Origin: Nitrosopumilus sp.
GTDB lineage: Archaea > Thermoproteota > Nitrososphaeria > Nitrososphaerales > Nitrosopumilaceae
DNA length: 64,000 nt
Direction: 5' to 3'
NCBI GenBank assembly: GCA_029861785.1
Contig: JAOTYR010000001.1
Span: forward strand, 2,636 to 66,635
Numbering within the stretch: the stretch's first letter is position 1; each line of letters starts with the position of its first letter. The position numbers and the translations under genes were made by a program. The notes below the pieces were generated by a model. The model searched no databases, had not been told where the DNA came from, and was given only the letters and a program-made list of their open reading frames with translations. Positions 2 through 49,800 of the stretch are shown here, piece after piece.

Positions 2-769
2 AACGTTAAACCCAAATCTGGAAGACTAAATCCTAGTCAAAGAACCGCAGTAAAAGAGGCCGTTAAAAAAATGTTAATGGGTTCTGAAATTATTTCAGAT
101 TCTACAGGAGGGATTACTGCTCAAGTTTTAGTTAATCTTTTAGAGCTTTCTGTTGATGGGGCATTCAAAAGAATGCTTCACCTTACAAAATCAATGTCAA
201 ATGATGCCATACTTGCAGTAAAAGAAAATAATTTGGAGCTTGCGCAAGAAGTTATCAATACCGATGATGAGGTAGATAGATTTGGATTTTATATTATTCG
301 CCAATTAAAAATTGCAATTCAGAATGAACATATGCTAAAAGAAATGGGATTCAGAAATGCTAGAAATTGCCTTGGATATCGGCTGGTTGTAAAAAATATT
401 GAAAGAACAGGAGATCATGCAGCATTTATTGCAAAGGATCTCTTAGAATTCAAAAAGTCTGTGAAAAAGGAAATTTTAGACAAAATTCAAGAGATGAATG
501 AATTTTGTTTAGGCGTCCTAGACGATTCTTGTTTGGCCTTATTCAAGGAAGACTATAATCATGCCGAAAAGATAATTGAGAAAACCTTTGATATCACAAA
601 ATATGAGAAAAAAATTCGAGATGCTTCCAGATCTCTAAAGGATGATGAAGAAATTTACAGAATAAGAAGGATAAGTGAGAGCATTAGGAGGATTTCAGAG
701 TATGCAAGTGATATTGCAGAAATTGTTCTAAATATGAATATTGAAAAGGCGTTAAAGAAAAAGGCATAA
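2..769 (+). CDS. PhoU-domain protein (phosphate-uptake-regulator-like); N-terminus probably upstream of the window
   Basis: The listed ORF is 71..769, but the frame stays open back to nt 2. Two PhoU-type helical repeats carry the ERxGDxxxxIA-like signature (IERTGDHAAFIAKDL and ISEYASDIAEIV). Confidence 0.7.
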   Translation, partial: NVKPKSGRLNPSQRTAVKEAVKKMLMGSEIISDSTGGITAQVLVNLLELSVDGAFKRMLHLTKSMSNDAILAVKENNLELAQEVINTDDEVDRFGFYIIRQLKIAIQNEHMLKEMGFRNARNCLGYRLVVKNIERTGDHAAFIAKDLLEFKKSVKKEILDKIQEMNEFCLGVLDDSCLALFKEDYNHAEKIIEKTFDITKYEKKIRDASRSLKDDEEIYRIRRISESIRRISEYASDIAEIVLNMNIEKALKKKA

Positions 770-828
770 TTTTTGGTAGGCAAAGATAGTCAGGTTTTAA
801 TTTACGGTAAAATGAAATAATTAGAAAA

Positions 829-1950
829 ATGAATTCTGCCATTTTAATCACATACGACAAGGAAGATGTAATAACAGAGGCAGTGGGATTATGTGATGCA
901 GCAAGATATCATATAGTCCACACTATTACCCAAAATTTCCTAAAGAAGCCAAAGTATGGAATTAGTGGTGGAGTGTTAGAAAAATTAGAAGGGATAACTG
1001 AAAAGCTTAGACCAGATGTGATTGTTTTTGATGAAATTTTAAAACCAAGTCAGAATTATAATCTAGCAACTGCACTTCATAAAGAAATTTTAGATAGAGA
1101 GGCACTAATTCTTGAAATATTTGAATCTAGAGCATCAAGTTCAGAATCAAAATTACAAGTAAAACTGGCTCAACTACGATATGAAATGGTAAGAGCAAGA
1201 GAAAAGGTACGATTGTCCAGAATAGGAGAACAGCCAGGATTTATGGGAATTGGACAATTCGAGGTTGATGTTTACTATAACGATATAAAAAACAGAATGA
1301 AAACTGTAAGATCAAAATTAGAAAAAGCTGGTAAGCAAAGAGAGTTGCATCGACAAAGTAGAAAAAGACAAGGCTTCAAGACCATGTCATTGGCAGGATA
1401 TACGTCTGCCGGAAAAACAACTTTATTTAACAAATTAACCGGAGAGTCAAAGGAACAAAGTAAAGAGTTGTTTACGACATTATCTACCACTACCAGAAGG
1501 ATAGTAATAAATCAGGATCAATTTTTAATTGCAGATACTGTTGGTTTTATTAGCAAATTACCTGCATATATGATAGAAGCATTCAAGTCCACATTAGAGG
1601 AATTAATTTACACAGATGTTATTCTACTTGTAATTGACATTAGTGATTCTGCATCTGAATTAAAAAAGAAAGTTGCAAGTTGTCTACGTACATTAAGCGA
1701 TGTTGGAGTGGAACAAGATAAAATAATTTTTGTACTGAATAAATCAGATTTAGTTTCTAATTATGAAATTCGAGAAAAAGTAAAAATTTTAAATTTAGCG
1801 GAGAATAAAAAATGTATTGCAGTATCTGCTTTAGCAGAAAAAAATATGGATGAATTAAAAATTCTAATCAAAGATATAATTGAAAGTCAAAGTTTAACAA
1901 AAAATGATAAAAATTTGGTAAAGGAGTGGAATCATCCTTATGGTAATTGA
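829..1950 (+). CDS. hflX: GTPase HflX
   Basis: HflX-type N-terminal domain followed by a G domain: G1 [15 protein letters not shown]3 DTVGF, G4 NKSD. Length 373 aa. Confidence 0.9.
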
Positions 1951-2473
1951 AGTGGTTAGAATTGGCCAAAGAGTAGTAAGAGATGATAGAGTAACAACTC
2001 ATGTCACTTTGGTTGCAAGGGCATTTGGTGCTAAAACAATTTTTATGACAGAGGTAAATCCAGACATCAAAGATACCCTAGATAAGATAAACAATACTTG
2101 GGGAGGTGATTTTTCAGTAGAATTTATTGATAGTTGGAAACCTTTAATAAAAAAGAAAAAAGAAAATGGCTTTAAAATTGTGCATCTTTCTATGTACGGT
2201 GAAAAAATTAATGATATTCAATCTGACCTTAGAAAAGAAGAGAATATGGTAATAGTAGTGGGTGCAGAAAAAGTACCCAGAGAAATTTACGAGTCTGCAG
2301 ATTATAACGTAGGAATTGGAAGTCAACCTCATTCTGAAATCAGTGCTTTAGCAATACTTTTGGATCGAATTCAAAAGGGGAGTCAGTTCAACAAAGTATT
2401 CCCAGAGGCAAAAAGAAAGATCATACCTACAAAAATGGGTAAAACTGTAGTAATGAAAGAGACAAGGGATTAA
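1940..2473 (+). CDS. trm56: tRNA (cytidine56-2'-O)-methyltransferase aTrm56 (SPOUT family)
   Basis: The N-terminus [27 protein letters not shown] matches the recalled aTrm56 signature (LGHRxxRDxRvtTHVaLtARAFGA). About 177 aa. Overlaps the hflX stop by 11 nt. Confidence 0.8.
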
Positions 2474-2499
2474 TAATAGAATACAATTAGTCATTAAAG

Positions 2500-3015
2500 T
2501 TGGTAGACAAATACGAAGATCCCTTTGTCAGAATTGCTTCGATGATTGGCGGTGATGAATACCTAAAGGTTGCCAGATCACTTTTAAAAGCAGAAGATGC
2601 AACAGATGAAGAAATAGCTAGTTCTACAGGCCTAAGGATTAACATGGTCAGAAAAGTATTGTATGATTTATTTGGAAAATCACTGATAACGGGAATTCGA
2701 GTAAAAGATGAACGAAAGGGTTGGTTTGTTTATAGATGGAGAACAAGAAGAGAGGAGGTAGAGCATTTCATTGAAAATCAAAAAAAGAAAATCACTGAAA
2801 GGCTGCAGCAGAGATTAGATTTTGAAAACCATTCAGATTTTTATCATTGTGGGAATGAAGATTGTCCAAGAGTAACATTTGAAGAGGCTTTAGAAGGGAT
2901 GTTCAAGTGTCCCTCTTGCCAAAATGTATTGAATTTAAAGAAAAACGATAAATCAAAAAAAGCATATGCCAAGAAAGTTGATGAGATAAAAAAAGATATG
3001 CAACAAATATTCTAG
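2500..3015 (+). CDS. tfe: Transcription factor E (TFE alpha / TFIIE-alpha homolog)
   Basis: TTG start. N-terminal winged-helix region, then a zinc ribbon (CGNEDC...CPSC). Size is typical of archaeal TFE. Confidence 0.85.
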   Translation: MVDKYEDPFVRIASMIGGDEYLKVARSLLKAEDATDEEIASSTGLRINMVRKVLYDLFGKSLITGIRVKDERKGWFVYRWRTRREEVEHFIENQKKKITERLQQRLDFENHSDFYHCGNEDCPRVTFEEALEGMFKCPSCQNVLNLKKNDKSKKAYAKKVDEIKKDMQQIF

Positions 3016-3254
3016 GTGAATTTTTCAAATTAACTAATTTCACTAGTCCCTTGTAGAAAATAATTTTTTAATAAATTTTAGTGAAAATATGATATGAAGT
3101 AATTACAAATAATAATAATTTCTTGAAAAAGTTTTCCAAGTTATGAATTTTTAATAATGATCATACAAAAAATATTCATTTTTTACTATATCGAGAAGAA
3201 AAGATGCTTTCTAATAGTTCGAAAAAACTTGAATTCTAGCTTACTGAATTAAAT

Positions 3255-4670
3255 ATGAGTAATTATTGGAAAAGATCCTTGAATCAAATTACTACGGTAA
3301 ATCCAGCAACAGGTGAAGAAATTTCAAAATTTACCCCAATGGATAAAGATCAGGTTTTTCAATTAGTAGGTAAAGCAAAGAGAGCATATCCAGAGTGGAA
3401 AAAAAACTATGAAAAACGAAGAAGTTACATTTACAATTTAGTTGAATATTTAAAAAAAAATAAAACAGAGTTAGGCAAAATTGCAACATCTGAGATGGGA
3501 AAGGCTCTCAAGGAATCAATTGGTGAAGTTGAAAAATGTGCGTGGGCGTTAGAGTTTTATGCGGATCATGGTGATAGTTTTCTTTCTGATGAAGTCCTAA
3601 ACACAGATGCTCGAAAAAGTTTCTTAACATTTGAACCACTTGGAGTAATTGGTTCTATTATGCCATGGAACTTTCCGTATTGGCAAGCACTAAGATTTGC
3701 TGCACCATGTTTAATGGCAGGAAATGTAATAGTTATGAAACCATCCAGATTAACTCTTCAATCTGGAATTGAAATTGAAAAAGCATTTACAGAATCAGGT
3801 GTTCCAGATGGGATTTTTCAAACAGTAGTAGGAAGTGTTGATTCAGCTAACCATCTAATCGATTCAGAAGTTAATGCTGTTACATTTACTGGAAGTACAA
3901 ATGCAGGAGCAAAAGTCGGTGAACGTGCAGCAATAAATTTGAAAAAATGTGTTCTAGAACTTGGAGGAAGTGATCCATTCATCGTTTTAGATGATGCAAT
4001 AATTGAAAAAGCTGCTGAAGGAGCAGTTAAAGGAAGGTTTATCAATTGTGGACAAAGCTGTGTGGCCTCAAAAAGGTTTTTTGTAGGAAAAAATATTGCT
4101 AAAGATTTCATTGAGCTGTTTATTAAGAAAGCATCTAAGCTGAAAGTTGGAGATCCTATGTCCATAGAAACTGATGTAGGTCCACTTTCGAGTAAAGAAG
4201 GATTAGATACGATTTCAGGGATTGTCGAAGATGCTAAGGAAAAAGGAGCTGAAATTCTTTTAGGAGGAGCTGAAATTGAAGGTAAGGGTTGCTTTTATCA
4301 GCCTACTATTCTTACAAATGTTAAACCAAATATGCGAATTGCAAAAGAAGAAACTTTTGGTCCGGTAGCTCCAATAACAGTAGTAGACAATGAAAGTGAA
4401 GCAGTTAGATTAGCAAATGATATTGAATTCGGATTAGGAGCCAGCATTTGGACCAAAGATTTAGAAAAAGCCGATAAAATGTCAAGAAGAATAGAATCAG
4501 GCATAGTTAGTGTAAATAACGTGGTTCTTTCAGATCCACGAGTTCCTTTTGGAGGGATAAAACATAGTGGATTTGGAAGAGAATTATCAAGATACGGTAT
4601 GCTAGAATTTGTAAATATTAAATCAGTTAGATTTTATGAAAATCTTACTCATCATCATTATGTAGAATAG
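3255..4670 (+). CDS. NAD(P)-dependent aldehyde dehydrogenase (succinate-semialdehyde-dehydrogenase-like)
   Basis: ALDH superfamily signatures: catalytic Glu context ELGGSDP, catalytic Cys context FINCGQSCVAS, and FTGSTNAG. Length 471 aa. Confidence 0.85.
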   Translation: MSNYWKRSLNQITTVNPATGEEISKFTPMDKDQVFQLVGKAKRAYPEWKKNYEKRRSYIYNLVEYLKKNKTELGKIATSEMGKALKESIGEVEKCAWALEFYADHGDSFLSDEVLNTDARKSFLTFEPLGVIGSIMPWNFPYWQALRFAAPCLMAGNVIVMKPSRLTLQSGIEIEKAFTESGVPDGIFQTVVGSVDSANHLIDSEVNAVTFTGSTNAGAKVGERAAINLKKCVLELGGSDPFIVLDDAIIEKAAEGAVKGRFINCGQSCVASKRFFVGKNIAKDFIELFIKKASKLKVGDPMSIETDVGPLSSKEGLDTISGIVEDAKEKGAEILLGGAEIEGKGCFYQPTILTNVKPNMRIAKEETFGPVAPITVVDNESEAVRLANDIEFGLGASIWTKDLEKADKMSRRIESGIVSVNNVVLSDPRVPFGGIKHSGFGRELSRYGMLEFVNIKSVRFYENLTHHHYVE

Positions 4671-4681
4671 ATCAATTTATC

Positions 4682-5239
4682 TTAGTTTTCTTGTTTAGAA
4701 ACATCTTTGGTGAGATTTTCAACAAGTTCTTCATAATTTTCTCGAGTTTTTCCGGTTTCTTTGAGTTTAATTTCTTCTATATTGGTTAATTCTCTATCGA
4801 CTTTCTCTGAAACATATTGTAACCTAGCCTCGGCCATCATAAACAATCTATTATTTTCTTTCCACAGATGCTCAGTTATGTGTTCAGTATATTGTTTCAT
4901 ATCATTAATTAAATTTTCAGAGGTTCCAGAATCAATGTATTGTTTTGCAGATTCTTCCATATGTTTTCCAATTTCTCGTGATCGTTCATGATCTATTAAC
5001 ATCATTGCAATTGGTCCCATATTTCTTGGCATTCCAGCTTGCTCTAATGCAGGAAACAAAGCATTTTCTTCTTTACTATGATGACACACATCTGTAAAGT
5101 TTTTAGAAAAGTCAATTACTGGATAAAGTATAGATTCAGGAATTTGTTTTCCACTATCAAGGAGTTGAATTGTCGCTTTCATAGCTTTAATTACTTTTTC
5201 AATTAATTCATGGTCTCGTCGTAAAGATGCAGTTGACAT
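4682..5239 (-). CDS. Hemerythrin (HHE cation-binding domain) protein
   Basis: HHE signature CHHSKEENALFP, plus further His/Glu ligand motifs (IDHERSREI, HLWKENNRLF). Confidence 0.8.
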   Translation of the reverse strand: MSTASLRRDHELIEKVIKAMKATIQLLDSGKQIPESILYPVIDFSKNFTDVCHHSKEENALFPALEQAGMPRNMGPIAMMLIDHERSREIGKHMEESAKQYIDSGTSENLINDMKQYTEHITEHLWKENNRLFMMAEARLQYVSEKVDRELTNIEEIKLKETGKTRENYEELVENLTKDVSKQEN

Positions 5240-5306
5240 GTAATTTTTTGATAAATTCCTTTATCTAAAGTTTATTAAATTTATAGGAAAATATTAGAAA
5301 GAAGGA

Positions 5307-5323
5307 AACGAAATTTTTTCGTT
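5307..5323 (-). terminator. Short hairpin downstream of the small basic-protein gene (possible terminator)
   Basis: Perfect inverted repeat AACGAAA-TTT-TTTCGTT. It lies 13 nt past the stop at 5336 and is followed on the coding strand by a T-rich stretch. The function is not demonstrated. Confidence 0.3.
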
Positions 5324-5335
5324 AACCATTTGTTT

Positions 5336-5566
5336 CTATCGGTTTGAAAGACTATTGGATTTCACAAATGCCCAAATTTTTTTGGTCATTTCACTTGGTG
5401 CAATCGGTTTCTTACCAAATACTTGCTCAACTGTTTCTTTGCGACCTACAAAGTTAATTGCATATCCACCAAATGCTGGTTTTTTTGTTTTAGTGGTAGA
5501 TTTTGTTTTTTTACTTGAGCTGCTAGTGGTTTTCTTTTTTGTTGTAGTTTTCTTTTTTGCTGCCAA
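5336..5566 (-). CDS. Small basic protein: K/T/S-rich N-terminal tail plus a C-terminal segment resembling the first half of a SWIB/MDM2 domain
   Basis: 76-aa ORF. Residues 1-30 are AAKKKTTTKKKTTSSSSKKTKSTTKTKK. The C-terminus VEQVFGKKPIAPSEMTKKIWAFVKSNSL resembles the recalled SWIB motif (xxIVGxxPMxRTEiiKKmWdYIKenxLQ). The antisense ORF 5355..5618 is a low-complexity mirror. Confidence 0.55.
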   Translation of the reverse strand: MAAKKKTTTKKKTTSSSSKKTKSTTKTKKPAFGGYAINFVGRKETVEQVFGKKPIAPSEMTKKIWAFVKSNSLSNR

Positions 5567-5602
5567 TTTCTCGTACTACTATTTCAAATTAAGTATAATA
5601 AC

Positions 5603-6259
5603 TTACAGTTTTGTATAATGTAAAACAAGGTCATTTTCAAGCCTTTTGATTCTATTTAGCCTTAGTTTTGGTGATTTTGTAACTTTATCAAATCCTTTAC
5701 CTTGAACCAAAGATATTGCATTTTTTCCACCTAAAATAAAAGGTGTTATTGTTATGAAAAATTCATCAACTAAATTATTTTTTATAAATTCCCAGTTTAT
5801 AGTCCCCCCACCCTCTAGAAGCACCGTTTTAATTTTTCTTTTTCCAAGACTACTCATTAATGTTTTAACATTTATTTGGTTTTTACCTATTATCAGTATT
5901 TCAATTGGAAAGTTCTTTAATTTTTGCAAATTTCTTTTTGTTATTTTTTTGGAAACAACAATGATGGTTTTTATTTGATAGCTTGTTTGCAGTATTTTGG
6001 ATTTATTTGAAATAGTTCCCCGAGAATCCAGAATTATTCTGATAGGATTTCTTCCTCTGGAGTATCTTACGTTAAGTAAAGGATCATCTTTGTTAACTGT
6101 ATTTTTTCCAATTAAAATTGCGTCTACTTGTGAACGTAATTGGTGAAGTCTTATGAGATCCTTTTTAGAAGAAAGTTTAGAATCTCCTGAGCCAGTTGCT
6201 ATTTTTCCATCTATTGATATTGCTGCACTTAAAATTATTTTTGGATTAAATTTTTCCAT
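5603..6259 (-). CDS. arfC: 2,5-diamino-6-ribosylamino-4(3H)-pyrimidinone 5'-phosphate reductase (RibD C-terminal-domain type; archaeal ArfC)
   Basis: DHFR-like RibD_C signature (IILSAAISIDGKIAT ... LLEGGGTINWEF). About 218 aa. Last gene of the riboflavin operon. Confidence 0.8.
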   Translation of the reverse strand: MEKFNPKIILSAAISIDGKIATGSGDSKLSSKKDLIRLHQLRSQVDAILIGKNTVNKDDPLLNVRYSRGRNPIRIILDSRGTISNKSKILQTSYQIKTIIVVSKKITKRNLQKLKNFPIEILIIGKNQINVKTLMSSLGKRKIKTVLLEGGGTINWEFIKNNLVDEFFITITPFILGGKNAISLVQGKGFDKVTKSPKLRLNRIKRLENDLVLHYTKL

Positions 6260-7436
6260 GAACTATCTTACCTCCAATCATAACTGCTCTAATACTAGAT
6301 TCTGAAGCTCGATGCACAATTGATGCATGAACATTATGCATTGGTTCTAAATCAATAGAATGTTTATCAATGAATATTCCATCTGCATATTTTCCCGTCT
6401 CAATTACTCCAACTTCTTTTTTCAAAATTTTTCCACCGTTTACTGTTGCCATTTTCAAAATTTCTTTTGGATTTACTCTTTTTTTATGAATTGCCATTGA
6501 AACTTTCCATAAATAATCCATTTCTCGAAACATATCTGGAGAATTTATCATGATATTATCCGTTCCTAATGCTATTGTACATCCAGTTTTTTTCATTAAA
6601 TCAATGTCTGGAATTCCTTCTGCAAGTGAAGCATTTGCTCGTGGACAAATTACAATTCCCCTGGTTTTTTTGGCTGTAGTGAAAAGATCTCCTTTTGAGG
6701 CATGAGTCATATGAACCAAAAAATGAGGTTTAAGATTCAATGCCCGTATTGTCTCAGATTTTCCAGTAATTTTTTTTGACGTAGAAACACTTTGTCTTGT
6801 TTCTGATGAATGGATTGCTCTCAATTTTGATGTCCTAGAGTAGAAATTTAGAACTGATTGACTATTTTCATTTGCTCCACTAATTCCAAGTCCATCACAT
6901 TTTGTAAGTAAATTTGTCAATTCATCAATTCGGTTTTTTGGGAATGATGTATTTTTTTGTATTTCTATATTTGTTTGATAAAATTCTAATCTTCCAAGAA
7001 TTATTGACCGTATTGGGACTTTAGATAACACTTCTTTAAGCATCAAAATTCCATCTAATCCTCCTTCTCGAAAATCCACAAATGTAGTGATTCCGTTTTT
7101 TAACATAGTGTTGCAAGAATTTTTCATGAAGTTTTTAAGCTGTTTAGGATCTGTTTCTTTTAGGATTTTTGATTTTATTCCTAGAACGGGATGAATGCGG
7201 TTGTTTACAGAGCTATTCAAAGTAATGTCTTTTGCGATAGAATCTCCAATATGAGTATGACAATTCATAAATCCAGGAATTAATAACATTCCTTCACAAT
7301 CTATTGATTCTTCTTTTGCGCTTGGACCTATATTATGTTGAATTTTTTTAAATCTATTATTCTGAACTTTTAAATTAATGTTGGATACATATACTAATTC
7401 TTTACCAATTAGCGCACTAACATTTTTTATTAACAT
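6246..7436 (-). CDS. Metal-dependent amidohydrolase (chlorohydrolase/aminohydrolase-type) embedded in the riboflavin operon
   Basis: Amidohydrolase-superfamily ligands are intact: HxH in PGFMNCHTHIGDS, His in FLVHMTHAS, Asp in IALGTDN. It overlaps arfA by 7 nt and arfC by 14 nt. Confidence 0.8.
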   Translation of the reverse strand: MLIKNVSALIGKELVYVSNINLKVQNNRFKKIQHNIGPSAKEESIDCEGMLLIPGFMNCHTHIGDSIAKDITLNSSVNNRIHPVLGIKSKILKETDPKQLKNFMKNSCNTMLKNGITTFVDFREGGLDGILMLKEVLSKVPIRSIILGRLEFYQTNIEIQKNTSFPKNRIDELTNLLTKCDGLGISGANENSQSVLNFYSRTSKLRAIHSSETRQSVSTSKKITGKSETIRALNLKPHFLVHMTHASKGDLFTTAKKTRGIVICPRANASLAEGIPDIDLMKKTGCTIALGTDNIMINSPDMFREMDYLWKVSMAIHKKRVNPKEILKMATVNGGKILKKEVGVIETGKYADGIFIDKHSIDLEPMHNVHASIVHRASESSIRAVMIGGKIVHGKI

Positions 7437-8182
7437 TGTAATTCATAAACTTCAGGTTTTTCTTTTCCTGAATCTCGAATTTCTCTAATAGTATCAAGAG
7501 ATTTGGTGGCAAGATTTACAGCCTCTCTAGAAGTTTTTCCACTGCCAATCCCACAATTCAAAATAATTCCATCTTCTTTTTTGATTAATCCTATGAAGTC
7601 CTTTGCAGTTTTTTTTGCATCCACACTGGCAATGACCATAAAATTATCTCCTCCCATGAAAAATGTTAAAGAATTTCTTTTAATAAAGAATTTCAACATT
7701 TTTGCATATAAGCTAAAAATAACTGAAGAGATTTCAATTGGAGAGAGTATTTTTCTTTTAGAAGAAAGATCATCTATATCAAAATGCATAATGATTACAT
7801 TTTTTTTTGACACAGCATTTTCAAAACCAAAAATATCATGTTCTTTACTTAAAATGATTTCATTTTTCTTTCCTTCGTATGCTTTTAGATTTGCTTCAAA
7901 TGGAGAATTTGCGTGTCCTATGAAAATTGAAAGTCGTATATCAAATTTTTTTCTAAGATTTTTTTGAATTTCTATATGATCTTCCAGATTTAACCCGTTT
8001 GATACTACAAAAAATTCATCTGCCCTATTTAGGAAAACGAGACAATTCTTTTCTGAAAATTGTCTCTGGAGTTCCTTGTAAAGAGATGCTTGAAGCATTT
8101 GAAGCTCATGTTCTCTATCACTTCCTTGTGTCAATGTCCATGGACCATAATCGTTTATTTTTAAAATACTAAGTTGAATCAT
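7430..8182 (-). CDS. arfA: GTP cyclohydrolase III (archaeal, FAPy-forming)
   Basis: The N-terminus IQLSILKINDYGPWTLTQGSDREHELQMLQASLY matches the recalled MJ0145-family signature (IQxxxIDNYGPWTxTPxPRRExDLQxLQSRLY). 250 aa. Confidence 0.85.
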   Translation of the reverse strand: MIQLSILKINDYGPWTLTQGSDREHELQMLQASLYKELQRQFSEKNCLVFLNRADEFFVVSNGLNLEDHIEIQKNLRKKFDIRLSIFIGHANSPFEANLKAYEGKKNEIILSKEHDIFGFENAVSKKNVIIMHFDIDDLSSKRKILSPIEISSVIFSLYAKMLKFFIKRNSLTFFMGGDNFMVIASVDAKKTAKDFIGLIKKEDGIILNCGIGSGKTSREAVNLATKSLDTIREIRDSGKEKPEVYELQC

Positions 8183-8595
8183 TCCTTAATCCTATCAAGT
8201 TCATTTGTTACTTTTACAAATGCTTCTACTGCTCTTTCAGATACAGATCTAATTCGTGCAAAAGCATGTCTTTCTTGCATACCAGGTCCTGTAATTCCAA
8301 GTGAAACAGGTTTTCGATATTTTAATGATAGTTCGGTTAAGGCCTTTGCTGCAGAATGAGCAATTACCTCATCATGTTTTGTTTGTCCTTTGATAATAGC
8401 ACCCAAGGTAACTACCCCATCTACATTTTTTTTTTGTAATAAGGAATCAACAATAATAGGCATATCGTATGCACCTGGAACTTTACAAATATAGGTTATT
8501 TTTAATTTCAATATTTTTGCTTTTTCTTGGGCCACAGAAAGCATTTTTGATGTCACTTCTTGATTAAATTCTGAAACTACTATAGCAATGTTCAA
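8179..8595 (-). CDS. ribH: 6,7-dimethyl-8-ribityllumazine synthase
   Basis: 138 aa. N-terminus IAIVVSEFNQEVTSKML and the lumazine-synthase core (GAYDMP, VTLGAIIKGQTKHDEVI). Confidence 0.9.
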   Translation of the reverse strand: MNIAIVVSEFNQEVTSKMLSVAQEKAKILKLKITYICKVPGAYDMPIIVDSLLQKKNVDGVVTLGAIIKGQTKHDEVIAHSAAKALTELSLKYRKPVSLGITGPGMQERHAFARIRSVSERAVEAFVKVTNELDRIKE

Positions 8596-8597
8596 AA

Positions 8598-9260
8598 TTA
8601 ATGCACCTTTGCGTATTCTAATAGTTCTTTTCCATCAATTAATGGAATAGCGTTTTGTTTTGCATATTTTTCTGCTTTTTCTATTGACAAGGCAGAATAT
8701 GTTTCAGCATCCATCATTTCACATATTGCTGTTACTGGAGTCAAATCTGCGAGTTTGGTCATGTAAACTGACATTTCAGTATGACCTTGTCTGTTTTGTA
8801 ATAGTCCTTTTGATGCAAGCAATATGGGTACATGGCCAGGAGTTTTAAAAGAAGAAATAAATTTTTTCTTTTTGTTATCGACATCAAAAATATTGGCCAT
8901 TTCTCTAATAGTTAAGGAACGATCTCTATCAGTAATTCCGGTATAAGTTTGATAATGATTTATAGAAATTGAAAAAGTCGGCCGATCTCCATAGGGAGCA
9001 AGGCCCATTATCATTTCTTTGTCGGTAGATGTTTCTGCCAAAATATCGTGCATATAGCGTAAACCTAAAGAATTTGCAAAATCATTATCAATTGCAATAC
9101 ATAAAAGACCTCCTGCATGTTGACGCATACGGGCAACATGTTCGGGAGTAACAAATTCTGCAGCTGTTACCATGTCGATCTCATTTTCCCTTCCTGCAGA
9201 GTCAAACAAGAGAACAAATTCTCCTCTTTTCAAGGATTGAATACCTGATTCAAGTGACAC
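8598..9260 (-). CDS. ribB: 3,4-dihydroxy-2-butanone 4-phosphate synthase
   Basis: DHBP synthase signature GRENEIDMVTAAEFVTPEHVARMRQHAGGLLC and the HTE motif (RQGHTEMSV). Confidence 0.9.
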   Translation of the reverse strand: MSLESGIQSLKRGEFVLLFDSAGRENEIDMVTAAEFVTPEHVARMRQHAGGLLCIAIDNDFANSLGLRYMHDILAETSTDKEMIMGLAPYGDRPTFSISINHYQTYTGITDRDRSLTIREMANIFDVDNKKKKFISSFKTPGHVPILLASKGLLQNRQGHTEMSVYMTKLADLTPVTAICEMMDAETYSALSIEKAEKYAKQNAIPLIDGKELLEYAKVH

Positions 9261-9339
9261 GAGTGAAAATGGGCAAGAGTCAGATTATAAAGTTTACTAA
9301 AAAATTAGTAAATACCACGATATTGGTAATAAAGGTATT

Positions 9340-9924
9340 TTATTTTAAAATATATTTCCCAAGAATATCGGTTTCAATATTAATTTTATCACCAATATTT
9401 TTTGTTTGAAAGTTGGTAATTTCAATTGTATGAGGAATAAGACAAACAGAAACTAAATTATTTTTTATATCAACAACAGTTAAGCTTATTCCATCCATTG
9501 CAATTGATCCTTTTTTTACAATGAATTTTGATAATTTTTTTGGAACTTCAAACCAGATTTGAACTTCTTTTGGTTTCTTTTGGATTTTTTTTATTATTCC
9601 CACTCCATCTACATGCCCCAATACAAAATGCCCTTCTAGTCTATCACCTGCCTTGAGACTTCTTTCAATATTTACCATATCTCCTGGTTTGAGGTTACCC
9701 AAATCAGTTTTCTTTGTTGTTTCTTCAATCATTTCAAAAGTGCATTTAGTTTTAGATAATTTTGTTACAGTTAAACAAACTCCATTCAAGGCAACACTTT
9801 GACCAATCTTCAAACCTTTTCCATGTTTTCCTAGATCTACAATCATTTGTATTGCACTTCTATTTTTGGTAGCTTCAGAAATTTTCTTCACTTTTCCAAT
9901 ACCTTTAACTATTCCCGTAAACAT
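9340..9924 (-). CDS. ribE: Riboflavin synthase, bacterial/eukaryotic alpha-chain type
   Basis: Canonical MFTGIVKGIGKV start and a second lumazine-binding repeat (GHFVLGHVDGVG). The ORF track starts 5 codons earlier at 9939. The ATG at 9924 fits the family N-terminus. Confidence 0.85.
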   Translation of the reverse strand: MFTGIVKGIGKVKKISEATKNRSAIQMIVDLGKHGKGLKIGQSVALNGVCLTVTKLSKTKCTFEMIEETTKKTDLGNLKPGDMVNIERSLKAGDRLEGHFVLGHVDGVGIIKKIQKKPKEVQIWFEVPKKLSKFIVKKGSIAMDGISLTVVDIKNNLVSVCLIPHTIEITNFQTKNIGDKINIETDILGKYILK

Positions 9925-10091
9925 AAATTCGAAAAGCAATTCTTTGTATAAATTGATTTAGATGAAATGTAAAATTGATATAAACGCATGAAATGATTAT
10001 TACCTTATCTAGTATCTCATACTAAATAAAAAAGATTTCTGATACTGAAATAATTTTCAAAAAATAAATACCACGTTTACCAAATAAAGTC

Positions 10092-10772
10092 GTGACAGGA
10101 GATAATTTTTCTCTTTTTGGGAGAATAGTAAATCAGTCTAAAAATCCTCAAAGTGGTTTAATTGTTTCTGCATTTGACAAGGATGGAGCAAGTGATTCTG
10201 ACTTTTTAGGAAAGAGCGTTACAGATGCATCAGGAAAATTTTCTATAGAGTTTAATACACAAAAGTTTAAAAAATGGTGGGAACTTTTTGAGGAAACTCC
10301 AGATGTATACTTGGTGATTCATGACCAACAAGGTCTTGAATTGTTAAAAACTCGCATAAAGAGTACCAAGCAGGAAATAGAATATCTAATAAAACTTCAA
10401 GAAAATGATCCAGATCCAAACTCAATTGATATCTATCAGGATAACTTCAACCGGTTTGGAGGTCAACTTGGAAGCGTAGGAATGACAATGGATTGGGAAA
10501 ACTCTATTAATCTAGATACTTTAGCTAGTGGACAACTTTCACCAGAAGTCAGAAAAAGACTTGAAGAATTCCGTGATGGTTACCTTGATAGGAGAAACAT
10601 GTTCAATATTCTTACGTCAATAATTAATGGAACTACTCTTTCCCTAGCTGAGGAACGTGACTTTAACATTATTGGTTACGATGGGGCACAAGTTCCAAGA
10701 TTGCCTCGACGCCAACGTTACAATCAAGTAATAATTTGGCCAAGAGAGGAGAGTAGTGAAAATTGGGAATAA
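10092..10772 (+). CDS. Hypothetical protein with an N-terminal transthyretin/carboxypeptidase-regulatory-like beta-sandwich
   Basis: GTG start. The pattern GRIVNQ..GLIVSAFDKD..SDFLGKSVTDASGKFSIEF...PDVYLVIHD is typical of transthyretin-like folds. The C-terminal ~120 aa are unrecognised. The stop lies 10 nt inside the next ORF. Confidence 0.55.
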   Translation: MTGDNFSLFGRIVNQSKNPQSGLIVSAFDKDGASDSDFLGKSVTDASGKFSIEFNTQKFKKWWELFEETPDVYLVIHDQQGLELLKTRIKSTKQEIEYLIKLQENDPDPNSIDIYQDNFNRFGGQLGSVGMTMDWENSINLDTLASGQLSPEVRKRLEEFRDGYLDRRNMFNILTSIINGTTLSLAEERDFNIIGYDGAQVPRLPRRQRYNQVIIWPREESSENWE

Positions 10773-13366
10773 TTTATGGTACAATAAAACTTCCGCCAAG
10801 AAATGAACGATATGAAATTATTGAAAACGATATTGTAAAAACAGCAGATGTCTGCATTATAGGATCAGGAGCGGCAGGTTCAGTTCTCTCAAAAGAATTG
10901 GCAGAAAAAGGTCTCAAAGTTGTCCTATTGGAGAGAGGGGGGTATTATGAAGGAAAAGATATGAATCAACGTGATGTTGACATGATTCCACTTTTATGGA
11001 AAAATTCTGGATTCCAATTTGATGACAGTCTTAAACTTGCAATTGCTCAAGGGACATGTCTTGGGGGTTCAACAATAATTAATGATGCTGTGTGTTTTGA
11101 TCCTCCAGAAAAAGTAATTGATGAATGGAATAGTATGGGAGCAAATTTCCCATATCAGGAAATCCAAAACCACACAAACAAAGTAAATACTACACTTAGT
11201 GTATCAGAAGCAACAGATGAAGAACTAAATCGAAATAACCAAATGCTTAGAAATGGGGCCAAAAAAATTGGTCTCAAGCATCATCACAAGAATCAGAGAA
11301 ACTGCATTAATTGCATGCAGTGCGGATATTGTCATCTAGGTTGTCACTATGAAACTAAACAAGATATGTTGCATACCTATCTCCATAAAGCGCTAAATGA
11401 TCCCAATTCAGATCTTTCAATCTATTGTAATTGTTACATCGATACTTTGGAGAAAAATGAAAACGGAATCATTCAGGGAGTAGAGGGAACTTTTCGAGAT
11501 TCTGGAGGAAATGATTCCTTTCGTATTAGAGTAAATGCAAAAATAGTAATTATTAGTGCAGGGACGATTGCCTCATCAAAAATTTTACTTCAAAATGGAA
11601 TTGCTCAGAAAACATCTGGTACAGGTCTATGTTTTCATCCTTCTCCAACTGTAGTGGCGGAATTTGACAAAGAAATAAAGGGAAATGAGGGAGTTCCGAT
11701 GGCATATACTGTTCATGATTTTGGAGTTACCAGATCCGATAATGAAACATGGGACAGCTATGAATTTTCAGGAAGGGAATTCTTGATAGAGAGCATATTT
11801 TTACCTATTTTGCAATTTTCAACAGCAATCCCAGTTGCGCTAAATGATCATTTGCAAATTATGAGAAGGTTGAATAATCTTACAATGGCAGGAATTGTAG
11901 TTCGTGATAGAAACAATGGTAAAGTTTCACTTACCCCAACTGGAAGAGCAAGTGTTCAATACACATTAGGTGATGAAGAACTAGAGTCAATGATAATGGG
12001 AATAAAATTACTAGCCAAGATGTGGTTTGAGCTTGGAGCAAAGAGAATAATTACCTCAATGACTACAATGAGCATTATCAATTCTGAAGATGAAATTCCA
12101 CAACTTGTTGATGAAATAAGAAAAAATCGACAATATCTATATCTTGGTTCTGCACATCCACAATCAGGAAATAAAATAGGCCTCGATAAAGAAACTTCTG
12201 TTGTAGATTCTAATTGTAAAGTACATGGATTTCAAAATCTTTTTGTTTGTGATGCAAGCGTATTTCCTACTGCTGTTGGTGTTAATCCTCAAATTACAGT
12301 AATGACAATTGCCTCAATTATAGCTGAAAGAATCAGCAATAATTGGAGTCAATTTAATTCAATTCCAATTTCCGAATCTCTAGGGAATACATGTAGTTTA
12401 TCCCAACCCTTCTATTGTCTTCAAAAAAACCTTTCAGAAATGTTTGATTCACTTGATAATAATGGTAAGGCACTTGATCTTATTAATGACGAAGATGAAA
12501 AAGCCAACGATAACAACTGGTCATTTGATCCGCAAAATCTTACAATTCAAAATAACACATATTGGAAGGGATTGTTTCCCCGTAATGGAAATATCCCTAA
12601 CACTCTTACAGCTTTTCTTGGAGGATTTTGGAAAAGATTCACAGAGGATTCATCTGGAGAAAATAGTTCCAAAGTAAAGGGAATTACTCATCCATTTGAG
12701 CTGGGAGTTTTTGCCAAAAACAAAGCGTTTGATAAGGTAATTGATGGGTTTGGAAAAGTCATTATTTTAGACTATTCTGAGCCAGGATATGACCAATTTC
12801 ATGATGTGTTAAAATTTGTCGATAAAAATATGATTTTAGGTAAGGCATTTTTTCGAGATCCTCAAAAAGGACAAGAAATGCTTACATTTTCCATGGCTAG
12901 AAAATATCCACTTGAATTTATGACTGAAGAAGACCACTCAATGCTATATTCCAAGATGAGCAAACCTGATTCCTTTGATAGTATAGTCGGGATTTGGGAA
13001 GGGCAGTTAGTTTCTGACTCTATAATGACACCTCCAGTTTTTGTATTTCGTTATTATTTTGATTCTGAGAACAAACTTCAAAACGATTATTTGTTTAATG
13101 GAATACTTTCAGGGACTGCCAAGGTAAATGAAGAAGATGATCATTATGAAATGCAAGACGTTACCCAGATATTTCATGATGAGCTTCGTCAGGTAAACAA
13201 GGATTTATTGATCGGAAAATATTGTACTGAACCCAGTGAGATAACTCGTTGGATTCCAAATGGATTAAGTTTTCTAAATGTAGATCGGGAAAGTAATAAG
13301 GTATGTTTACCATATATTTTAAAAAGAATTGGCGAAGAGGAAGCTTATAGAGGATATAGACCCTAA
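10763..13366 (+). CDS. GMC-family FAD oxidoreductase with a ~330-aa C-terminal extension (two lipocalin-like GXWXG/DUF4334-like modules)
   Basis: FAD Rossmann motif VCIIGSGAAGSVLSKELAEKGLKVVLLERG. Cys-rich insert CINCMQCGYCHLGCHY. GMC C-terminal catalytic region HPQSGNKIG..VVDSNCKVHGFQNLFVCDASVFP..NPQITV. TTG start, with no in-frame ATG before the Rossmann motif. Confidence 0.8.
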   Translation: MGIIYGTIKLPPRNERYEIIENDIVKTADVCIIGSGAAGSVLSKELAEKGLKVVLLERGGYYEGKDMNQRDVDMIPLLWKNSGFQFDDSLKLAIAQGTCLGGSTIINDAVCFDPPEKVIDEWNSMGANFPYQEIQNHTNKVNTTLSVSEATDEELNRNNQMLRNGAKKIGLKHHHKNQRNCINCMQCGYCHLGCHYETKQDMLHTYLHKALNDPNSDLSIYCNCYIDTLEKNENGIIQGVEGTFRDSGGNDSFRIRVNAKIVIISAGTIASSKILLQNGIAQKTSGTGLCFHPSPTVVAEFDKEIKGNEGVPMAYTVHDFGVTRSDNETWDSYEFSGREFLIESIFLPILQFSTAIPVALNDHLQIMRRLNNLTMAGIVVRDRNNGKVSLTPTGRASVQYTLGDEELESMIMGIKLLAKMWFELGAKRIITSMTTMSIINSEDEIPQLVDEIRKNRQYLYLGSAHPQSGNKIGLDKETSVVDSNCKVHGFQNLFVCDASVFPTAVGVNPQITVMTIASIIAERISNNWSQFNSIPISESLGNTCSLSQPFYCLQKNLSEMFDSLDNNGKALDLINDEDEKANDNNWSFDPQNLTIQNNTYWKGLFPRNGNIPNTLTAFLGGFWKRFTEDSSGENSSKVKGITHPFELGVFAKNKAFDKVIDGFGKVIILDYSEPGYDQFHDVLKFVDKNMILGKAFFRDPQKGQEMLTFSMARKYPLEFMTEEDHSMLYSKMSKPDSFDSIVGIWEGQLVSDSIMTPPVFVFRYYFDSENKLQNDYLFNGILSGTAKVNEEDDHYEMQDVTQIFHDELRQVNKDLLIGKYCTEPSEITRWIPNGLSFLNVDRESNKVCLPYILKRIGEEEAYRGYRP

Positions 13367-31165: not shown

Positions 31166-31330
31166 ATGAAATTTAGAGAAATTTATTGTAATAATTGCAA
31201 GAAGGTGTTAGGTCGATATAATACCAAATACTACGATAGTGGTAAAATTAAAGAAATATTAAATTCTAGACATTCAACACATGTGCGGAAAGGTCATCGA
31301 GTGGTATTCAGAGATTTTTTCAAAGAATGA
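31166..31330 (+). CDS. Micro-protein (54 aa) with a CxxC...HxH motif, hypothetical
   Basis: ATG ORF below the track cutoff: MKFREIYCNNCKKVLGRYNTKYYDSGKIKEILNSRHSTHVRKGHRVVFRDFFKE. No family recognised. Confidence 0.3.
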   Translation: MKFREIYCNNCKKVLGRYNTKYYDSGKIKEILNSRHSTHVRKGHRVVFRDFFKE

Positions 31331-47370: not shown

Positions 47371-48420
47371 GTGGAAAAAGTTTCGGTTCTTGCAATTACT
47401 AAAAATGGAATTGTTATTGGATCTAAATTAAAAGAAATTTTTCCTCATTGGAATGTTTATGCTCCATCAAAATTTTCAAATGATGAGGAAATAAATTGGT
47501 ATTTTAATCCTACATCGGAAAAAATTATCGAGTTATTTAAGAATAGTAATGCCTTAATTTGCTTATTTTCATTAGGAGCAGTAATTAGATTAATAGCCCC
47601 ACATTTGAAAGATAAAAAAACTGACCCTGCAGTTATTGTAATTGATGACAAAATTAATTTTGTAATCAGCGTGTTATCAGGTCATTTAGGTGGTGCTAAT
47701 GAGCTAACAAAGACTATCGCTGAAAAATTAAATTCCAAAGCAGTAATTACCACAGCAGCAGATGTAAACAAAACCATTGCAGTTGATCTTTTAGGGAAGG
47801 GTTTTGGATGGAAAATTGAGGATGATTCCACAGTAACAAAAATAAGTGCCCATATGGTAAATGAAGAAAAAATTGGAGTGTATCAAGATGCAGGAAAAAC
47901 AAATTTGCTTAAAGAATTGCCAAAAAATGTGAAAATTTATGAAAGCATGGATGATTTGAAAAATTCACATTCCAAAGGAAATTTAATAATTTCTGACCGA
48001 ATCGTGAATTATGATTTCATTGATAATTCGGTGATTTATCGTCCACCTAGTTTAGTAATAGGAATTGGTTTGCATAGGGATACATCAAAACAAACAATCA
48101 GGGATGGAATTGATGTTTGCCTAAAAAAATACAATCTAAGTCAAAAATCTATTTCTAAATTAGTCTCAATAAAAAAACCAAAAGATGTTCAAGGTTTGGT
48201 GGATGTTGGAAAAGAAATGAAAATTCCAGTTGAATATGTAGATAGAGAAGACCTGGCAGAAGTTCCAACACCTAATCCCTCTGATACAGTTAAAGCATTT
48301 GAGGGTACTTCAAGTGTATCTGAAGCTGCTGCAATCAAAGCCTCTGGAGGCAAATTAATTGTGGAAAAGCAAAAATTCCCGCCTAATTTGACCATAGCAA
48401 TAGCGAGGATTTTAGATTGA
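47371..48420 (+). CDS. cbiG: Cobalt-precorrin-5A hydrolase CbiG
   Basis: CbiG N-terminal and C-terminal domains (GIGLHRDTSKQTI...VSIKKPKDVQGLVDVGKEMKIPVEYV). GTG start. Confidence 0.8.
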   Translation: MEKVSVLAITKNGIVIGSKLKEIFPHWNVYAPSKFSNDEEINWYFNPTSEKIIELFKNSNALICLFSLGAVIRLIAPHLKDKKTDPAVIVIDDKINFVISVLSGHLGGANELTKTIAEKLNSKAVITTAADVNKTIAVDLLGKGFGWKIEDDSTVTKISAHMVNEEKIGVYQDAGKTNLLKELPKNVKIYESMDDLKNSHSKGNLIISDRIVNYDFIDNSVIYRPPSLVIGIGLHRDTSKQTIRDGIDVCLKKYNLSQKSISKLVSIKKPKDVQGLVDVGKEMKIPVEYVDREDLAEVPTPNPSDTVKAFEGTSSVSEAAAIKASGGKLIVEKQKFPPNLTIAIARILD

Positions 48421-49169
48421 AACGAGGCTTATTGCTAATAGATAGAGGAAGCAGAGAAAGAGAAGCATCCGAAGAACTAGAAGTCATATGTGAAGGAGTC
48501 AAGGCTAAAGGAGATTATACCTTTACAGACTATTGTTTTCTTGAGGTTGAGCCTCCGTATATTGAAGATGGCATACAAAAGTCATTGAAGCAAGATATAG
48601 AATCACTTACTATCGTGCCATATTTTCTCTATCCTGGAAAAAAAGTAAAACTAGCAGTTTCCGATGTGATGAAATTTCAGAAAAATACTGATGTAAAATT
48701 TCTTGTAACAAAACCAATGAGTATGCATAAAACTTTGATTAATCTTGTTGAAAATAGAATATCAACTTCTTTAAATGAAAATAAAATTACAAATTCTAAA
48801 AAAAATATTGATGTTTTAATAATTGGTCATGGTAGTAAAGATCCAAATGCTCAAATGTCATTAAATTATGTTGTAGATGGGTTAAAAGAAAAATATAGAA
48901 ATGTTAGTAGATGTTTCTTAGAAATTGAACAACCAGATATTTTTGAAGGAATAAAAAGTTGTGAAAAAAATAATCCAGAAGTTCTTGTAATCGTTTTTTA
49001 TTTTTTACATGAAGGTGCACATGTTAAAACAGATATTAATAATGATCTTAAGCCAGCCATTGAAAAATCAAATTTAAAAAAAATATGCATCACTAAACAT
49101 TTAGGAACAGATGAGAAAATGATTGATTTGATAGTTGAAAGAGCAAAAGAGGTTGAAAATGCAAACTGA
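48417..49169 (+). CDS. cbiX: Sirohydrochlorin cobaltochelatase CbiX, fused two-domain form
   Basis: Two CbiX-like halves. Half 1 has LLLIDRGSRE...VPYFLYPGKKV. Half 2 has VLIIGHGSKD...VFYFLHEGAHV. TTG start sharing TTGA with the cbiG stop. Confidence 0.8.
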   Translation: MKRGLLLIDRGSREREASEELEVICEGVKAKGDYTFTDYCFLEVEPPYIEDGIQKSLKQDIESLTIVPYFLYPGKKVKLAVSDVMKFQKNTDVKFLVTKPMSMHKTLINLVENRISTSLNENKITNSKKNIDVLIIGHGSKDPNAQMSLNYVVDGLKEKYRNVSRCFLEIEQPDIFEGIKSCEKNNPEVLVIVFYFLHEGAHVKTDINNDLKPAIEKSNLKKICITKHLGTDEKMIDLIVERAKEVENAN

Positions 49170-49800
49170 AAAGGGTCAATCAATAGAAGATGCAAGTATG
49201 GAAATTATTGAAAACGAAATTGGAAATCATGATTATAGTGAAAAAGAATGGCCAATCGTTAGGAGAATTATTCATTCAACAGCTGATTTTGATTTTGTAA
49301 CTAAAAATAAAATTGTTTTTTCTAAAAATGCAATTGAAAGTGGAATTAATGCGCTCAAAAATGGTTGTAGTGTAATAGTTGACGTTAATGGGGTTATTGG
49401 AGGAATGAATAAACAAAATCCCAAAGATTTCAAAAATAAGATAATTTGCAATATTTCGAGCCCTGAAATTATGGAATTAGCTAAAAAACAGGGAAAAACA
49501 CGTTCTCAGGTGTCAATGAGAGTTGCTTCTTCTGATATGGAGGGTGGAATAGTCGTGATAGGAAATGCCCCAACTGCACTTTTAGAGGTAATTCAGATGA
49601 TCAAGGAAGGTCTGGTCAAACCAGCATTGATTATTGGCATTCCTGTAGGCTTCATTTCTTCGCCAGAATCAAAAGAAGAACTTTCTCATATCACAGAAGT
49701 TCCCTTTATTACAAATATTGGAAGAAAAGGAGGTAGTTCTTCAGCCTCTGCAATCCTTAATGCACTATATAAACTTCTTAGGTCAGATTTAACGTCTTGA
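49159..49800 (+). CDS. cbiC: Cobalt-precorrin-8 methylmutase CbiC
   Basis: IHSTADFDF and VIGNAPTAL signatures. The ATG at 49159 is preferred over the TTG at 49135 and gives an 11-nt overlap with cbiX. Confidence 0.85.
   Translation: MQTEKGQSIEDASMEIIENEIGNHDYSEKEWPIVRRIIHSTADFDFVTKNKIVFSKNAIESGINALKNGCSVIVDVNGVIGGMNKQNPKDFKNKIICNISSPEIMELAKKQGKTRSQVSMRVASSDMEGGIVVIGNAPTALLEVIQMIKEGLVKPALIIGIPVGFISSPESKEELSHITEVPFITNIGRKGGSSSASAILNALYKLLRSDLTS

Follow-up and report, generated by a model that had tools for sequence, protein, structure and literature searches.

The riboflavin operon and its amidohydrolase gene

In a 64,000-nt stretch of the Nitrosopumilus sp. contig JAOTYR010000001.1 (positions 2,636 to 66,635; hereafter the window), we analyzed a riboflavin biosynthesis operon, the 396-aa amidohydrolase that is encoded within it, and the pathway step that this enzyme may catalyze. 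The window has a GC content of ~32% and its closest protein matches come from Nitrosopumilus/Nitrosopumilaceae at 76-89% identity. The operon consists of six closely packed genes on the minus strand, which in reading order are ribE, ribB, ribH, arfA, the amidohydrolase gene and arfC (Table 1). An earlier note on this DNA had listed the genes in this order, and the coordinates of the open reading frames (ORFs) and the Pfam and NCBIfam matches agree with it for each gene. The same note had reported short overlaps at both ends of the amidohydrolase gene, and these are exact in the junction sequences: the arfA stop and the amidohydrolase start share 7 nt (ATGTTAA), and the amidohydrolase stop and the arfC start share 14 nt (ATGGAAAAATTTAA). 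The ribH and arfA genes also overlap, by ATGA. The arfC product scores 198 bits on the TIGR01508 rib_reduct_arch model of NCBIfam (cutoff 186), and by Pfam it is a stand-alone RibD_C domain without a cytidine deaminase (CDA) domain. The ribE ORF as listed opens at TTG (MLFEFMFTG...), and an internal ATG at 9924 gives the canonical MFTGIV start (MFTGIVKG). As the family models first match at residue 6 of the listed ORF, translation of ribE probably begins at this ATG.

Table 1 Features of the riboflavin operon (positions within the window)
Feature	Positions	Strand	Evidence
ribE (bacterial-type riboflavin synthase)	9340..9939	-	Pfam Lum_binding E 1.1e-47; NF006767 226 bits from residue 6
Two adjacent 18-bp palindromes (TTACTAAAAAATTAGTAA, ATACCACGATATTGGTAA)	9294..9329	.	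match RbkR consensus TTAC-N10-GTAA
ribB (DHBP synthase)	8598..9260	-	Pfam DHBP_synthase E 1.2e-56
ribH (6,7-dimethyl-8-ribityllumazine synthase)	8179..8595	-	DMRL_synthase E 9.9e-34; TIGR00114 133 bits
arfA (GTP cyclohydrolase III, GCH III)	7430..8182	-	Pfam GCH_III E 1.8e-48
Amidohydrolase, 396 aa, MJ0699/'PyrD'/NF005552 family	6246..7436	-	Amidohydro_1 E 4.5e-39
arfC (archaeal 2,5-diamino-6-ribosylamino-pyrimidinone 5'-phosphate reductase)	5603..6259	-	RibD_C E 2.8e-52

The amidohydrolase belongs to the MJ0699 family

In the hidden Markov model search that the earlier note had suggested for placing the amidohydrolase in a subfamily, the protein passed a single curated NCBIfam equivalog, NF005552 (PRK07213, 'chlorohydrolase'), with 317.3 bits against a cutoff of 294, and the runner-up family reached 119 bits. 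The NF005552 alignment is full-length (residues 2-387 on profile positions 3-377 of 382), and in Pfam the only matches are Amidohydro_1 and Amidohydro_3. The scores on models with a defined substrate are far below their cutoffs: 97 bits against 522 for 5'-deoxyadenosine deaminase (NF005557), 58 against 779 for the 5'-methylthioadenosine (MTA)/S-adenosylhomocysteine (SAH) deaminase (NF012037) and 68 against 375 for guanine deaminase, and the 8-oxoguanine deaminase model likewise is far from being reached. M. jannaschii MJ0699 (Q58110), which we reached via a Methanotorris family member and its neighbor clusters, scores 589 bits on NF005552 and aligns with the window protein at 35% identity over 355 aa (E 6e-53). 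In the MJ0699 cluster group, the M. lauensis orthologs bear the database name 'Pyrimidine deaminase archaeal predicted'. When 1.84 billion cluster representatives were searched exhaustively, 197 clusters matched at E ≤ 1e-30; of those that could be named, most are archaeal (Bathyarchaeia, Jordarchaeales, Archaeoglobi, Methanotorris and 'archaeon HR06'), and the clusters of two weaker representatives contain bacteria (Trueperaceae and Actinomycetota).

Judged by its sequence, the protein is an ortholog-level member of the NF005552 family and represents, in Nitrosopumilus, the ortholog of MJ0699 and HVO_2483. The window protein and this family have in common the equivalog-level assignment, the full-length match and the invariant HxH/HxxE/H/D residues, and the family, like the window gene, clusters with riboflavin genes; it is also described as belonging to the RbkR regulon (PMC5397151), of which the window gene is a predicted member. 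They differ in that MJ0699 is only 35% identical to the window protein, the function of the family is itself a prediction, and the Nitrososphaeria proteins carry an insertion of ~15-30 residues near residues 150-165 compared with the Methanococcales and Jordarchaeales proteins.

This family has been discussed before. MJ0699-type 'PyrD' was put forward for the missing archaeal pyrimidine deaminase from clustering and co-occurrence, in a study that took in Nitrosopumilales and found PyrD in the RbkR regulon of 15 genomes (Rodionova 2017, PMC5397151); Osterman et al. 2010 is cited there as a PyrD proposal. HVO_2483, placed in the family by 34% identity to MJ0699, was later named together with MJ0699 as the PyrD candidate and experimental confirmation was called for (Pfeiffer and Dyall-Smith 2021, PMC8305020). 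A pathway review from 2026 goes no further than stating that separate polypeptides are used in some archaea. The earlier note had presented the amidohydrolase as a candidate for an unassigned pathway step; the candidate is not a new one, since the family was already proposed for the deaminase step and is so annotated in some records. Because this standing prediction was published, the hypothesis of the note is a rediscovery, and the window gene is a further member of a family with an existing functional prediction.

A deaminase-type active site

The amidohydrolase carries the full deaminase signature: HxH (H60/H62), HxxE (H209/E212, in 'HSSE'), H242 in 'LVHMT' and D293 in GTDN. The ligands are placed as expected, with the HxH on strand 1, one His on strand 5, another on strand 6, the Asp on strand 8 and, in addition, the catalytic Glu of the HxxE. 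Among 58 family members, H60, H62, D65, E212, H242 and D293 never vary, and the conservation of H209 is at least 90%. The intact metal ligands described in the earlier note are thus right for the HxH and for D293 of GTDN and wrong for the histidine of MTHAS (H245), which is replaced in relatives; the invariant histidine of strand beta-6 is H242. The note had also missed H209/E212, an HxxE motif that is typical of amidohydrolase-superfamily deaminases.

The AlphaFold2 model of the protein has a pLDDT of 96.1 and a pTM of 0.94. With this model, the top PDB matches found by Foldseek are all COG0402 deaminases or dehalogenases (TM 0.74-0.88 and about 0.85 for the best, E 1e-27 to 1e-19, ≤20% identity), and the fold matches include isocytosine and guanine deaminases. 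A PDB search with the sequence gave only partial, C-terminal matches at E 1e-19 or weaker, so there is no close solved homolog. The deaminase-type residues and the (beta/alpha)8 fold matches bear out the description of the enzyme as COG0402-like. The solved members of this class, which include guanine deaminase, isocytosine deaminase Vcz (7ww2), MTA/SAH/adenosine deaminases (4gbd and 1p1m) and AtzA/TrzN, share with the amidohydrolase the (beta/alpha)8 barrel with the beta-sandwich formed by the N and C termini, at TM 0.8-0.88, the metal ligands and the HxxE glutamate, and the guanine and isocytosine deaminases act on the identical 2-amino-4-oxopyrimidine ring. They differ from it in sequence, at ≤20% identity, and the amidohydrolase reaches no specific family cutoff among them. 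Conserved motifs that are specific to the MJ0699 family (GDSxxKD, DFREGG, CPRxN, GTDNxM and VHR) suggest that the substrate differs from those of the COG0402 relatives and is probably phosphorylated. As a speculation, the conserved K69, R123, R231, R266 and R376 would be candidates for binding the ribityl phosphate.

arfC is the constant partner of the amidohydrolase gene

For the comparison of gene neighborhoods we kept 80 loci from a search of genome contigs, all of them from Nitrososphaeria. The order ribE-ribB-ribH-arfA-amidohydrolase-arfC is present in 80/80, down to an amidohydrolase identity of 45%, and the loci cover Nitrosopumilus, Nitrosarchaeum, Nitrosopelagicus, Nitrosotenuis, Nitrosotalea, Cenarchaeum and Nitrososphaerales. 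In one of them, L063, the amidohydrolase match segment (8001-8849) stops early, at about residue 283 of 396, with arfC at its usual place; this short gene may reflect a frameshift or an error of assembly, or it may be a pseudogene. In another, L056 (1250-2814), a gap of ~300 nt separates arfA from a longer amidohydrolase match.

Beyond the ammonia oxidizers, the amidohydrolase gene is followed by a RibD_C gene in five loci, and the ends overlap in four of these (L081, L084, L086 and L087). L081, a Bathyarchaeota contig, reads amidohydrolase-arfC-cofG-cofH, and the 'HR06'-like contig L084 reads ribE-ribB-ribH-amidohydrolase-arfC without an adjacent arfA. In L086 the order is ribB-ribH-arfA-amidohydrolase-arfC-creatininase-ribE. 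The same order is found in L087, a Nitrososphaerota metagenome-assembled genome (MAG; JAFLYV010000008.1), with cofG-cofH upstream and a HAD hydrolase gene downstream, and in L089, where RibD_C is only a 65-aa fragment after a gap. From these gene orders, arfC rather than arfA is the constant partner of the amidohydrolase gene, usually with overlapping ends. The adjacency of arfA, amidohydrolase and arfC genes, the conservation of which the earlier note had proposed to examine, is therefore kept throughout the Nitrososphaeria sample and is absent in L084, where arfA is not adjacent, and in four methanogen/Thermoplasmatales loci, where the amidohydrolase gene is unclustered. CofG and CofH, encoded next to amidohydrolase-arfC in L081 and upstream in L087, both use the deaminated product.

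The L087 cluster is very compact, with cofG-cofH-ribB-ribH-arfA-amidohydrolase-arfC-creatininase-ribE and then the HAD-family hydrolase gene (8699-9364) within positions 98-9364. It is plausible that this HAD protein is a candidate for the archaeal 5-amino-6-ribitylaminouracil 5'-phosphate phosphatase; neither the window nor the other loci yielded a homolog of the protein.

Creatininase-fold genes and the search for other deaminases

The creatininase-fold genes of the rib operons lie at 7900-8664 in L086, 6935-7750 in L087 and 6902-7636 in L089. Their products carry an SxEQHGPHLP motif and score best on the MftE and creatininase models. ArfB, the Fe(II)-dependent formamide hydrolase of the pathway (creatininase fold, EC 3.5.1.102), is a metal-dependent hydrolase of riboflavin synthesis, as the amidohydrolase would be, and some archaea encode the two in a single operon; they differ in fold and family, as the amidohydrolase contains neither a creatininase (PF02633) domain nor an EQHGPHLP motif. 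Because a creatininase-fold protein is encoded along with the amidohydrolase in single operons of L086, L087 and L089, the amidohydrolase would not be a substitute for ArfB in these lineages. M. jannaschii likewise has MJ0699 besides its ArfB, which we take to be MJ0116.

The earlier note had stated that the cluster contains no ArfB-like gene and no CDA-fold RibD domain, and this absence extends to the whole window. A motif scan of the window found no creatininase (EQHGPH) motif, tblastn found no match to the three operon-encoded creatininases, and by Pfam none of ten window ORFs of 219-307 aa is a creatininase. The CDA motif (H(A/C)E...PCxxC) is absent from the window save for a zinc-ribbon false positive at 61383-61514, and Pfam detects no dCMP_cyt_deam domain in the amidohydrolase or in the arfC product. 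Furthermore, no creatininase-family gene was found within 8 kb of the operon in the 80 loci of ammonia-oxidizing archaea (AOA).

A predicted RbkR operator upstream of ribB

The thaumarchaeal RbkR operator is TTAC-N10-GTAA and typically consists of two adjacent palindromes (PMC5397151). In the window, an RbkR-like pair of this kind sits in the 79-nt gap between ribE and ribB, directly upstream of ribB (Table 1). A double site is present at the equivalent place in 54 of 66 related loci, and 64 of the 66 have at least one site. Single-site matches number 38 in the window, which is not above chance (32 ± 6); therefore, the argument for a predicted operator rests on position, pairing and conservation. 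On this basis, ribB-ribH-arfA-amidohydrolase-arfC is predicted to be under the riboflavin regulator through an RbkR operator. Because the palindrome pair lies between ribE and ribB and not upstream of ribE, ribE may be outside the regulated unit.

At 31228-31245 we noticed ATACTACGATAGTGGTAA, which closely resembles the second RbkR half-operator at 9312-9329. This sequence is part of an ORF for a 54-aa zinc-ribbon-like protein (CNNCKK...; 31166-31330, plus strand). As a third RbkR site it is probably a chance match, given that the sequence is coding and that the window-wide count is at chance level.

Other features of the window

About 360 nt downstream of arfC, a gene at 4682-5239 (minus strand) encodes a hemerythrin-domain protein with a weak YtfE/RIC-like match; it is syntenic in most Nitrosopumilus loci and absent from more distant ones. 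Two overlapping ORFs of 226 and 867 aa (10092-13366, plus strand) run divergently from ribE, with which they share its upstream intergenic region; the longer one has an N-terminal FAD-binding-like GSGAAG motif. The window also contains part of a second cofactor cluster, in which overlapping genes at 48417-49800 (plus strand) encode a CbiX-type chelatase and a CbiC precorrin-8X methylmutase.

Predicted function of the amidohydrolase

We predict with good confidence that the 396-aa protein is the pyrimidine deaminase ('PyrD') of the riboflavin pathway. Of the two activities that the earlier note had offered, the deaminase is supported by the ortholog family, the coupling to arfC and the deaminase-type site, and the deformylase is disfavored by the operons in which the amidohydrolase gene stands beside a creatininase gene. 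Because GCH III, the formamide hydrolase and the reductase are accounted for, only deamination and dephosphorylation remain. Taken together, the comparative data favor deamination over deformylation as the role of the enzyme.

We propose the following scheme, in which we predict what the substrate is, in what order the steps occur and what the residues do in catalysis. ArfA would convert GTP to the formamidopyrimidine, the creatininase-fold ArfB, presumably encoded elsewhere in AOA, would take off the formyl group, and ArfC would reduce the ribosyl to the ribityl moiety. The amidohydrolase would be a mononuclear-metal (beta/alpha)8 enzyme of the COG0402 deaminase class, with a metal-bound hydroxide held by H60, H62, H209 (or H242) and D293 and with E212 of the HxxE motif as the proton shuttle. 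This hydroxide would attack C2 of the 2-amino-4-oxopyrimidine ring in the ArfC product, 2,5-diamino-6-ribitylamino-4(3H)-pyrimidinone 5'-phosphate, and ammonia would be released, which is the ring chemistry of the guanine and isocytosine deaminases. The product would be 5-amino-6-ribitylaminouracil 5'-phosphate, which once dephosphorylated would feed RibH (lumazine synthase) and, where present, the F0 synthase (CofG/CofH). The amidohydrolase would be co-translated with ArfC via the overlapping stop and start, and co-transcribed with ribB-ribH-arfA from a promoter with the RbkR operator.

One alternative is that in AOA the amidohydrolase replaces ArfB and hydrolyzes the formamide of 2-amino-5-formylamino-6-ribosylamino-pyrimidinone 5'-phosphate, which GCH III produces; this would be its sole activity or, in a bifunctional enzyme, would come in addition to deamination. 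The gene follows arfA directly, with the 7-nt overlap, and neither the window nor the surroundings of the operon in the 80 AOA loci yielded a creatininase gene. Moreover, because the related operons outside the AOA have a creatininase gene right after arfC, the AOA appear to have lost it from this position. However, the amidohydrolase co-occurs with a creatininase-fold gene in the L086, L087 and L089 operons, L084 has amidohydrolase-arfC without an adjacent arfA, and the HxxE signature and the nearest folds, deaminases and dehalogenases with no formamidase among them, point away from formamide hydrolysis. The family is also present in M. jannaschii, where ArfB is a characterized deformylase (PMC5397151), and creatininase-like genes are reported in cultured Nitrosopumilaceae (PMC12625717), and one is labeled arfB in sponge AOA (PMC11812461). 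We therefore regard a replacement of ArfB as highly unlikely, and give the same low probability to an AOA enzyme that would act as a bifunctional formamidase/deaminase on consecutive riboflavin intermediates in a translationally coupled complex with ArfC.

Another possibility is that the protein is the deaminase of the pathway and acts at a different point, either before the reduction, on the ribosyl form as in the bacterial order, or on the dephosphorylated intermediate. The gene order puts the amidohydrolase between arfA and arfC, and the sequence data fix neither the order of the steps nor the phosphorylation of the substrate. We nevertheless consider this unlikely, as reduction precedes deamination in M. 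jannaschii according to Graupner et al. 2002, as cited in PMC5397151. The least probable of the explanations, in our estimate, is an unrelated COG0402 deaminase acting on 5'-deoxyadenosine, MTA or SAH, on guanine or on a pterin, which merely travels with the rib genes and which, in the first of these cases, would recycle by-products of the radical S-adenosylmethionine enzymes CofG and CofH. Some sources label family members 'MTA/SAH deaminase', 'cytosine deaminase' or 'chlorohydrolase', the top Foldseek matches are MTA/adenosine deaminases, and cofG and cofH neighbor the amidohydrolase gene in L081 and L087. Set against this are the scores of the specific models, which are far under their cutoffs, the predicted RbkR operator in front of the gene, and the constant partnership with arfC, a gene that overlaps the end of the amidohydrolase gene in the window and in four loci outside the AOA, including rib operons without cofGH. 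M. jannaschii also has a separate DadD, presumably MJ1541, which likewise counts against it.

Several points weigh against the pyrimidine deaminase assignment itself. Our search for another deaminase covered the 64-kb window. The creatininases of L086, L087 and L089 do not reach the cutoff of the ArfB equivalog (for L086, 41 bits against 180), so their identity as ArfB is one that we infer; they may represent a divergent ArfB subgroup that is unnamed by current models. The amidohydrolase gene is not clustered with rib genes in Methanotorris, in two Methanobacterium-type loci and in a Thermoplasmatales MAG, and the support from gene context therefore comes mainly from Nitrososphaerota and Bathyarchaeia-type lineages and not from Methanococcales, Methanobacteriales or this MAG. 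Because the nearest solved structures are ≤20% identical, specificity for the substrate is not readable from homology. Finally, in the searchable literature we found no family member that had been tested biochemically or genetically, be it by assay or by knockout, in line with the statement of the earlier note that the deaminase has not been firmly assigned in archaea.

In the archaeal biosynthesis of riboflavin and F420 (F0), the C2 deamination is one of the last steps that still await enzymatic proof, and the MJ0699 family is the standing candidate for it. The present comparison sharpens the existing case by the invariant synteny in Nitrososphaeria, the arfC gene that follows the amidohydrolase gene in five non-AOA loci, the operons with both the amidohydrolase and an ArfB-like gene, the conserved, predicted RbkR operator and the confident structural model. 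What novelty remains would lie in a biochemical proof of the predicted deaminase step and in the low-probability bifunctional role in ammonia oxidizers; compact operons such as that of L087, with cofGH and the HAD hydrolase gene, would be suited to heterologous reconstitution.

The equivalent C2 deamination is carried out by the N-terminal domain of bacterial RibD and by yeast Rib2 (EC 3.5.4.26), which have a cytidine-deaminase fold and a metal site unrelated to those of the amidohydrolase, in which the H(A/C)E...PCxxC motif is missing; this would be a non-orthologous displacement. RibD is joined to its RibD_C-type reductase by fusion, whereas the amidohydrolase is joined to the reductase by translational coupling, and the overlap with arfC would provide for the coupled synthesis of the two activities that are fused in bacterial RibD. 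If the prediction is true, an amidohydrolase-fold enzyme would be the non-homologous replacement of the zinc-dependent, CDA-fold deaminase domain of bacterial RibD.

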